This document shows, piece by piece, positions 53,239 through 58,814 of a stretch of DNA of 64,000 nt (its first letter is position 1; each line of letters starts with the position of its first letter). The translations under genes were made by a program, and so were the position numbers. Source of the DNA: Candidatus Anstonellales archaeon (GTDB taxonomy: Archaea; Micrarchaeota; Micrarchaeia; Anstonellales; J096); contig JAWAFD010000004.1 of assembly GCA_038890745.1 (NCBI GenBank), positions 1-64,000 on the forward strand, written 5' to 3'. The notes below the pieces were generated by a model. That model ran no database searches. It saw only the letters and a list, made by a program, of their open reading frames with translations, and was not told where the DNA came from.

Positions 53239-53489
53239 CGCCGGGGGTGGGATTTTCAGCCAAACCACCCTCCAAAACATCCTAAACAGATATGGGGTGG
53301 AAGCGTGATGCGGTGAAACAAGTGCGACCCAAAAGTTTAGGAGGGTTGGGTCGCACCGAAGCCCTCCGGGTTGTTTCATCGCATCAGGGGGGATGACAAA
53401 GAGTTAAAGCCCCCCTGGGCTTTCGAACCCACGCACCCTTTCGGGTAACAGCTTAGCAGGCTGCCGCCATACCTCTAGGCGACCCCGGC
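53239..53489 (-). tRNA. tRNA-Ser(GCT) with 169-nt intron at position 59/60 (intron 53253..53421)
   Basis: GCCGGGG TC GCC..GGC G GCAGC CT-GCT-AA GCTGT, long variable arm ACCC-GAAA-GGGT, GTGGG TTCGAA|intron|T CCCAC CCCCGGC G. BHB: TTCG/TGAA helix with AAA and AAT bulges. Confidence 0.95.
53294..53391. mobile_element. 98-bp repeat with 81-bp MITE-like core (53306..53386; 16-bp TIR), inside the tRNA-Ser intron
   Basis: Reverse complement of 58166..58263 with one mismatch. TIRs TGATGCGGTGAAACAA / TTGTTTCATCGCATCA; inner 11-bp hairpin. Mobility is inferred. Confidence 0.7.
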
Positions 53490-58078: not shown

Positions 58079-58165
58079 GATAGTTGTTTGTATTTTATTG
58101 TTTAAAAATGTTTGGGGCTGCTGGGATTTCCACCAGACCAGGGGGTACTTTAACTTATTCTCAGA

Positions 58166-58263
58166 CCCCCTGATGCGGTGAAACAACCCGGAGGGCTTCG
58201 GTGCGACCCAACCCTCCTAAACTTTTGGGTCGCACTTGTTTCACCGCATCACGCTTCCACCCC
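58166..58263. mobile_element. second, inverted copy of the 98-bp repeat (core 58171..58251, perfect 16-bp TIR), inside the tRNA-Trp intron
   Basis: TGATGCGGTGAAACAA...TTGTTTCACCGCATCA; 97/98 identical to the reverse complement of 53294..53391. Confidence 0.7.
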
Positions 58264-58322
58264 CTATCGTATTAGGGGACCAGAGGGGAGGTCAGCTTAT
58301 TAGATGACCCCCCTAGCTCCAA

Positions 58323-58426
58323 CCCCCCTATCTTATACGAGCAAGGGTTAGCCAAGGGGGGACTTAAGCATATTCTTATTCCCCCCTCACGCTTCCACCC
58401 CCCTATTTTATACGAGCAAGGGTTAG
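58323..58426. repeat. 29-bp direct repeat pair (75-bp period) within the tRNA-Trp intron
   Basis: CCCCCCTAT(C/T)TTATACGAGCAAGGGTTAG at 58323..58351 and 58398..58426. Confidence 0.9.
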
Positions 58427-58814
58427 TCAATATAGGGGGTAGTAGAGTAAGGGGGTCTGCGATAAGCAATAGTACCCCCTAGTCTAACGGAGGATACATG
58501 GAACCTAGGGGGAAACTTCCCCCTGGGTTTGGTTTTGAACCCAGATATGCAGGTTTCTTCAACCATCCTCCCCTCAGGTTAAGGGAAGGGGTAGGAGATT
58601 AGAAGGAAATGGGGGAACCGTAGGTTCCCCTGGTTCCTCTCCTGGAGCCTGCCGTGTTGCCTGGTTGCACCACAGCCCCAACGCTTTTATTTCTATTCAG
58701 TATTTATTTAAATGCTTTTTGTTTTGTGTTTTTTGGGGGAGTTTTGCTATTCTTATTTTCCGCCTAAAAAGCAACGCATTTAAAACAATATGCTCAAATC
58801 AACGCGGTGGTTGG

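Follow-up and report, generated by a model that had tools for sequence, protein, structure and literature searches.

Archaeal tRNA introns measure 11–129 nt according to the available part of a 2014 review (PMC4090602). In ARMAN-2 (Ca. Micrarchaeum acidiphilum), bulge-helix-bulge (BHB) introns at position 59/60 share location, splice motif and EndA type with the intron that we describe here; yet, the ARMAN-2 intron that was assayed is of 13 nt, whereas ours is of 407 nt and built of repeats (accessible text of PMC3239211). In Thermoproteales, near-identical introns occur in differing tRNAs and are thought to have spread at the DNA level, as we suggest here (Fujishima et al., 2010, via the accessible parts of PMC4090602 and bioRxiv 10.64898/2026.10.13.758758). 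Unlike in Thermoproteales, the sequences that make up the introns studied here are also found elsewhere than in introns, namely in tRNA trailers and at gene junctions, and one of them is an element with filled and empty orthologous sites; thus, donors are visible in this genus, and the likely growth of archaeal tRNA introns can be viewed at close range. Intron gain has been linked to a mobile element at one locus (available text of PMC3293823), and an Asgard preprint in which copying, mobile elements and reverse transcription were tried offers, in its accessible part, no general path by which introns arrive (bioRxiv 10.64898/2026.10.13.758758). The available parts of PMC11291895 and PMC12558985 hold nothing on long tRNA introns. 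In the literature covered, from which most subscription journals and the bioRxiv supplements were missing, we found no description of the element or of repeat-filled Micrarchaeota tRNA introns.

The element carried by the intron, hereafter the Y element, resembles MITEs and Rickettsia palindromic elements (RPEs), which are described in the accessible text of PMC10969869 as short, non-coding, multi-copy palindromes found in frame in unrelated housekeeping genes. Its in-frame insertions in adk (87 nt), topA (147 nt) and at a Trm56-like gene (105 nt) correspond to those of RPEs, the likeness being one of description. In contrast to MITEs and RPEs, the Y element has a three-way-junction shape, nests recursively, colonizes tRNA introns and shows a target repeat of 0–3 nt, and no cognate transposase was found for it. 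Similar to the REPINs and BIMEs associated with RAYT (TnpA-REP), the repeats studied here are hairpin units with compensatory changes that form mosaic or tandem clusters and insert at existing copies (PMC3116915 and PMC6006769, in their available parts). Yet, there is no Y1 gene in the three genomes of the genus (G000–G002), the Y1 loci fetched from other genomes carry no element, and the foot of the Y element bears no constant GT[AG]G tetranucleotide over 38 element rows. As for archaea, the accessible text of the same papers reports a survey in which only IS200-type TnpA was found. Terminal arms and 1–2-nt repeats set the Y element apart from non-autonomous IS200/IS605 derivatives as well.

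The window, i.e., the whole stretch of 64,000 nt analysed here, corresponds to C4:1-64000 of a 0.99-Mb, five-contig archaeal assembly (G000; 93.8% complete). G000 probably belongs to the Micrarchaeota, given the likeness of its EndA to that of ARMAN-2 and the restriction of a strict pattern for the element family to records titled Ca. Micrarchaeota. The feature under study is a combination of known kinds, a predicted BHB intron that would act as a safe haven for repeat DNA. What sequence comparison adds is that the 81-bp palindrome within it belongs to a family present in three families of the order, with filled and empty orthologous sites that include the Trp intron. Our explanation as a whole, to which we assign a probability of about 0.62, is that a T-loop intron has grown by DNA-level copying of hairpin repeats and by carriage of the likely mobile Y palindrome.

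The tRNA-Trp gene and its T-loop intron

The tRNA-Trp gene occupies positions 58679 to 58113 on the minus strand and is split by two predicted introns; despite its presence, no tRNA was called in the window by ARAGORN or Rfam. Excision of 87 nt after G37 and of 407 nt after position 59 leaves a 73-nt RNA which ARAGORN recognizes as tRNA-Trp(CCA). On the minus strand, exon 1 (58642..58679) comprises the 5' strand of the acceptor, the D arm and the anticodon through G37, and is followed by the 87-nt intron at 37/38 (58555..58641), exon 2 with positions 38–59 (58534..58554), the 407-nt non-coding intron at T-loop position 59/60 (58127..58533), and exon 3, which runs from position 60 to discriminator A73 (58113..58126). 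The excised 407 nt are exactly the interval 58533..58127 delimited in a preliminary description of this DNA. Blast searches detected no second copy of the exons in the 93.8% complete assembly, leaving a single tRNA-Trp(CCA).

The 59/60 junction forms a strict 3-4-3 BHB with 3-nt bulges, a fully paired central helix (4/4) and flanking stems, and a complete tRNA is restored when the intron is removed. On every feature examined, the 407 nt are thus predicted to be a spliced-out member of the BHB class. Open reading frames lying wholly inside the intron or starting inside it do not exceed 65 aa, except for an upstream TTG extension of the next gene. Longer, ORF-bearing tRNA introns have been reported in DPANN archaea, and we claim no length record for the 407 nt. 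The region 58127-58533 folds far better than shuffled sequences (z = −10; 0/100 shuffles). At 60 °C, the predicted minimum is lower than the splice-competent fold by 6.3 kcal/mol, a gap that is the second worst of 23 introns (range 0.1–6.9) and counts against easy splicing. Comparison of the window and of the element loci with Rfam yielded nothing at gathering score, the matches by E-value being generic hairpins. The first ~60 nt of the 37/38 intron are a repeat module, 58/60 identical to C3:77023-77082, where it sits in opposite orientation behind tRNA-Ser(TGA). The 37/38 intron consists mostly of this module and showed no Rfam match at gathering score that would mark it as the host of a box C/D guide for positions 34 and 39; in G002, a genome of the same genus, the 37/38 intron is different and of 56 nt.

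We found that T-loop introns are common in this genome: 23 of the 41 tRNA genes (40 from the finder and Ala(TGC), read separately) carry a 59/60 intron of 32 to 407 nt, and these introns fall into three sequence families. As the finder requires a BHB motif, the motif-independent figure is that of the 16 T-loop introns detected without its help, each of which (16/16) possesses a fully paired 4/4 central helix. Position 57 has C as its partner in four of the nine genes that carry G57 and in none of the 14 that carry A57. One of these genes, tRNA-Ser(GCT) with a 169-nt 59/60 intron (window:53239-53489, minus strand), was missed by ARAGORN, which at relaxed score gives mostly noise, including a false Trp call on C3. 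Because such genes are invisible to ARAGORN and Rfam, the tRNA sets of these archaea are under-annotated. Among the Trp orthologues (12 parsed of 18 fetched), G002 has a 59/60 intron of 145 nt and G008 one of 11 nt, and the remaining ten have none. Intron length is therefore variable, as the preliminary description had expected of an intron grown from repeated units. Both G002 tRNA-Val genes seen (L085 and L087, at the ends of C26 and C32) contain a T-loop insert with a Y element, whereas Val(TAC) and Val(GAC) of G000 have plain T-loops but D-arm introns; thus, intron positions differ between congeners.

The EndA of G000 (375 aa) finds its best match in 4FZ2 (E 2e-88), the ARMAN-2 EndA (accessible text of PMC12397907), an epsilon2 enzyme that cuts a 59/60 intron in vitro (PMC3239211, available part). 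By this match, an EndA type able to cut non-canonical positions is present in the genome, and we infer by analogy that the Trp 59/60 intron would be removed by the epsilon2-type EndA of the host. Besides EndA, a second, 150-aa protein with a tRNA intron endonuclease catalytic domain is encoded at C1:152348-152599; this protein and the 375–383-aa EndA are both kept in all three genomes of the genus.

Repeat units of the intron and their copies at other loci

Re-inspection of the sequence confirmed the layout given in the preliminary description, with all features at the positions named there: three unit heads on the same strand (minus), starting near 58404, 58329, and 58266; a pair of 29-bp repeats 75 apart (58425-58397 and 58350-58322; 28/29 identical); an "empty" motif that starts at 58401; and a "filled" motif that starts at 58263 and holds the 81-bp element (58171-58251). 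Two modules had been overlooked, namely the 5' hairpin module and a fourth, oppositely oriented unit. The former (58488..58533, minus strand, with a 28-nt hairpin at 58502-58529) is 43/45 identical to its shared copies and common to the 131–145-nt T-loop introns of six other tRNA genes. The latter (58432..58484, plus strand), which we count as unit 1, is inverted relative to units 2–4 and identical (51/51) to C2:163411-163461 and C3:141364-141414. Unit 2 (58351..58425, minus strand) includes one 29-bp repeat, the "empty" junction at 58381-58401 and a hairpin at 58356-58386, and is 67/69 identical to C5:50537 and C2:163626. Unit 3 (58280..58350, minus strand) contains the second 29-bp repeat and a hairpin at 58285-58313, and matches C2:45588-45647 at 56/60 positions. 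In unit 4, also on the minus strand, the head (58252..58266) forms the left flank of the 81-bp element and the hairpin (58141..58170) its right flank, the latter being 36/36 identical at three other loci.

In all, the intron modules are 93–100% identical to copies at other tRNA loci, and the best match is always elsewhere, while the four hairpins within the intron share only 21–29 of 34 letters (62–85%). As the units are closer to other loci than to each other, they point to a mosaic copied between loci and not to local tandem amplification, which the preliminary description had taken for the main route. The unit array was probably assembled as such an inter-locus mosaic by recombination or gene conversion.

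Units of the hairpin type are found in either orientation, both within introns and shortly (a few letters) after the 3' ends of tRNAs. Of the 21 repeat clusters, 18 have a tRNA gene at a distance of no more than 300 nt, compared with 32 of 178 non-coding gaps (rough binomial P 3e-11, the clusters being non-independent). The three clusters away from tRNAs comprise two located at the ends of contigs and the Trm56 insertion. Raw matches to the unit pattern number 46, 8, and 16 in the three genomes of the genus and one each in three other members of the family; in 13 of 19 genomes there are none.

The trailers behind tRNA-Ala, -Thr, and -Ser (C1:179300-179794, C1:252068-252358, C3:77017-77443, and C2:313720-314089) carry the 3' end of the respective tRNA again, accompanied by a hairpin unit, and look like attachment-site duplications stacked on one another; an integrase was not found in the genus. 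Copies of the tRNA-Ser(TGA) 3' end and a module of the Trp-37/38 type are also present at C2:227690-227874, a region in which no tRNA gene was found. In a genome of another family (L024; G058:C52:60-520), a tandem array of a different small hairpin repeat is located between two tRNA genes, directly upstream of tRNA-Trp.

The Y element family and its insertion sites

The 81-bp palindromic element of the Trp intron (58171..58251, minus strand) has perfect inverted arms of 16 bp, one full inner hairpin and the stub of a second. The full form of the family, of about 103 nt, has a conserved junction from which two inner hairpins and an outer stem of 16 bp extend, so that the 81-bp version, by comparison of the two forms, is a shortened member which has apparently lost most of its second hairpin. 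A second 81-bp copy in the window (53306..53386, plus strand) is located inside the 169-nt intron of tRNA-Ser(GCT). Altogether, the element is short (81–146 nt), non-coding, bounded by 16-bp terminal inverted repeats and multi-copy, with 14 + 1 copies in G000. Of the 14 whole 81-bp copies, five follow the Trp-type flank, four and two follow two other flanks, and each of the remaining three is the second partner in a tandem pair linked by a single G; in one copy, the core is turned around while the flanks stay the same. The additional copy is a 107-bp relative (C2:135073-135179; L042:1074-1180) at the overlap of an aminotransferase gene with a gene whose product, by the look of the sequence, we take to be Trm56-like. 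At that locus, the left arm gives the aminotransferase gene its stop codon and the right arm gives the Trm56-like gene a GTG start (M-L-L-V-F-R), the insert being also open in frame from the old TTG. When the 81-bp element was considered as a nested BHB intron, its flanks, by eye, were seen to form no central helix on either strand, and this candidate was rejected.

Searches with a covariance model, followed by a broader model built from 16 diverse copies, detected the family in at least 5 and at least 9 of 121 relatives, respectively, one bin of the nine being doubtful, and in at least 6 of 150 genomes of the phylum; there was none among the matches for 100 genomes of families f13–f24. These searches scored 26–33 candidates per genome, and weak members may be missed. 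The doubtful bin, G058, contains a contig that is 100% identical over 1560 nt to metagenome contig L041, which comes from the same record series as L040, and was counted as non-independent, as the contig may be misbinned. A metagenome scan for the element returned only two stretches, one of them L041, and the strict family pattern matched only records titled Ca. Micrarchaeota (15 stretches, two genomes); there were no matches in viral contigs with two patterns, nor in plasmids and phages.

Three families of the order have kept the length of about 103 nt as well as the letters of the junction. In 16 sequences, 97.4% of cells pair, a share that drops to 34–40% on sliding of the partners, and changes on both sides are seen in 22 of 29 pairs. 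As the sequences were chosen by a structure model and palindromes self-correct, this covariation speaks for a conserved shape and not for function. Template switching gives covariation in any palindrome, and covariation does not show selection. In G028, all 32 scored candidates match, the elements are intergenic and mostly away from tRNAs, and the Y element is nested inside itself. At L064, L107, L132, and L136–L142 of this genome, nesting is at least two deep, between or within the inner hairpins of other copies, and many of its contigs end in such stacks. At L074 (G002:C37:7547-9612), one flank of a Y element repeats the other in inverted form over at least 300 nt, with the element at the centre of what is either a large palindrome or a fold-back of the assembly.

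Orthologous filled and empty sites were found at adk, topA, the Trm56 junction and in the Trp intron. The adk and topA insertions belong to another family. In adk, the element is present in G060 and the site is empty in 7/7 congeners, with a net addition of 86 + 1 nt, in frame; in topA, it is present in G040 and the site is empty in 6/6 congeners with a match (one genome being unmatched), with 146 + 1 nt, in frame. Both insertions thus add the element and one repeated letter. The aminotransferase/Trm56 junction is filled in G000 and empty in G001 and G002, the net 105 nt being again in frame. At the Trp locus, contig L040 is identical to G002 over 1540 nt, yet it bears an element in the 59/60 intron where G002 is empty, at a site unlike that of G000; L040 ends inside the element, and this difference could be an assembly join. 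Over the 38 element rows, many of which are copies of one event, the repeated flank letters number 0–3 nt: a 1-nt duplication is seen at two clean coding sites and three tandem joins, and 2 nt fits G028 and G054.

The nested arrangement of element, repeat and intron proposed in the preliminary description is supported by these data, and its idea of a site-specific insertion into the hairpin unit is not: in G000, the element follows two other left flanks and, in tandem, itself, and in relatives the core sits in unrelated sequence, an observation that the preliminary description had itself named as fatal to its account. The element is therefore not specific to the Trp-unit site. As for the "empty" site, its sequence is present at 58381-58401, as described, though its pre-insertion status does not follow, since it may equally be a deletion scar that keeps the first three letters of the element. 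The filled/empty pair within the intron differs by 78 nt, without duplication, and retention of the element's first three letters in the "empty" form recurs in the TAA subfamily of G002. On sequence comparison, the GTGA form would be such a scar, or else the filled form would have come from a 1-nt-duplicating insertion with subsequent loss of a short tandem repeat.

No mobilizing gene was detected in the families searched, in genomes that are 82–94% complete. There was no Y1 TnpA in the three genomes of the genus (G000–G002), no tyrosine integrase or IS110 in three genomes, no DDE_3 in four and no GIY-YIG in five, and DUF559 gave one sub-cut-off match in five. The one true TnpB gene, in G002 (L053), has ordinary IS605-type ends unrelated to the element, and element model R1 found nothing at this locus or at the Y1 loci. 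G028 and G106 encode ordinary IS200 TnpA proteins, and the Y1 loci of G028, G106, G020, and G006 have no adjoining element. Likewise, no autonomous partner with the same ends was found among the families searched in these incomplete genomes. The heterogeneity of the junctions (0–3 nt) is unlike the product of a single DDE enzyme.

Proposed growth of the intron and alternative explanations

We propose the following course of events for the Trp intron. A 59/60 intron family, seen in many tRNA genes of the genus with the splice motif kept at the ends, would have provided the frame. G-run/hairpin units would then have been swapped between loci through the shared G-run and linker, by recombination or gene conversion, giving mosaic arrays such as the four Trp units. 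The Y element, whose presence or absence is seen at orthologous sites, appears to insert as a non-autonomous unit in either orientation, usually duplicating 1–2 letters, and may owe its movement to a nuclease or transposase that acts in trans and is missing from these assemblies; after insertion, it would be copied along with its host unit, so that the 14 copies come down to three flank types and three tandem additions. Finally, if the epsilon2-type EndA reads only the junction, as the ARMAN-2 biochemistry suggests, the intron would be a safe haven in which insertions cost little. Growth of this kind could be tested by comparing strains and by assaying EndA in vitro.

The copying and deletion of hairpins by the replication and repair of the host, through slippage, cruciform template switching and microhomology-guided capture, would require no dedicated mobilizer at all, the TGA/TAA "empty" forms being deletion scars. 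We consider this unlikely, even though no transposase was found in the families searched, 0–3 nt are repeated at the junctions, the first three letters of the respective subfamily are exactly what the "empty" unit retains in two subfamilies, and a core is flipped between identical flanks: whole elements with sharp, conserved ends have appeared at unrelated single-copy sites without prior homology (adk, topA, Trm56), and their length and junction letters stay constant across three families. A spread at the RNA level would involve circles of excised intron, or fragments of pre-tRNA, that are joined anew to splice sites or to the 3' ends of tRNAs and afterwards converted to DNA. It would account for the starting points of the units, at 37/38, at 59/60 and immediately after the tRNA 3' end, each of which is a place where an RNA end is released during processing, and circular tRNA introns are known (PMC12558985, in the part available). 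It is, however, a rather improbable source of modules that occur in both orientations relative to the tRNA, and of a Y element that lies far from tRNAs in G028 and inside coding genes. Amplification of the unit in place, with the inverted-repeat element inserted site-specifically at GTGA and 58381-58401 as the pre-insertion state, was the account of the preliminary description. The tandem layout with its spaced 29-bp repeats agrees with it, as does an "empty" unit at C1:15671 that shares its hairpin loop with the filled unit, and the filled form would arise from this unit if a 1-nt duplication were followed by the loss of one tandem repeat of 4 letters; yet, the closer resemblance of the units to other loci and the other flanks of the element in G000 and relatives make it very improbable, the unrelated insertion sites having largely refuted it.

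The long intron could also be a mis-assembly of repeats from several tRNA loci, given that the assembly has N gaps, its contigs end in repeat arrays and no examined contig or listed piece spans the whole intron. Against this, the longest exact repeat starting in the intron region is of 85 nt, unique 31-mers are present in nine blocks across it, and both Trp splice junctions are orthologous to those of G002. Furthermore, the unique junction 58239-58335 is present without differences in a contig of run X1, which may be the source sample of the assembly, at near single-copy depth (47.9 vs. 65.6), and the Trp-specific junction is also present in run X2. The local order is thus probably not an assembly artefact, and we regard mis-assembly as a highly improbable origin of the intron's length. 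Five DNA runs, all of hot springs metagenome, contain the stretch or part of it, four of them, from one study, with at least half of its words, and no RNA run is among those listed; missing cover in X3–X5 carries no weight. In X4, which represents a slightly diverged strain, a joint that skips 58345-58486 was seen at depth 13 with only 21 letters on its short side, and may come from another locus. A domesticated, functional RNA that serves as guide, processing signal or regulator could be seen in the intron or in the Y element on account of the strong covarying structure and of the C/D guide often nested in archaeal Trp introns (available part of PMC4090602), but the position is not conserved, both orientations occur, most relatives lack it and Rfam gave no match at gathering score, so that we give this idea hardly any credit.

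Beyond the growth by copying and carriage proposed for this intron, it is possible, although we put it forward tentatively, that the Y element is a Micrarchaeota-specific selfish DNA with a three-way junction, moved by an undescribed enzyme that leaves a 1–2-nt duplication and sheltered in in-frame protein loops and BHB introns, and that, together with the G-run units, it is the actual source of new and growing archaeal tRNA introns. If true, the Y element and the G-run units would answer the question of source that the accessible text of the Asgard preprint leaves open (bioRxiv 10.64898/2026.10.13.758758).

Next to the tRNA-Trp gene and divergent from it, a short ORF (window:58815-58994) that is conserved in G002 ends in two CxxC pairs, a terminus which we take to resemble a zinc-ribbon tail.
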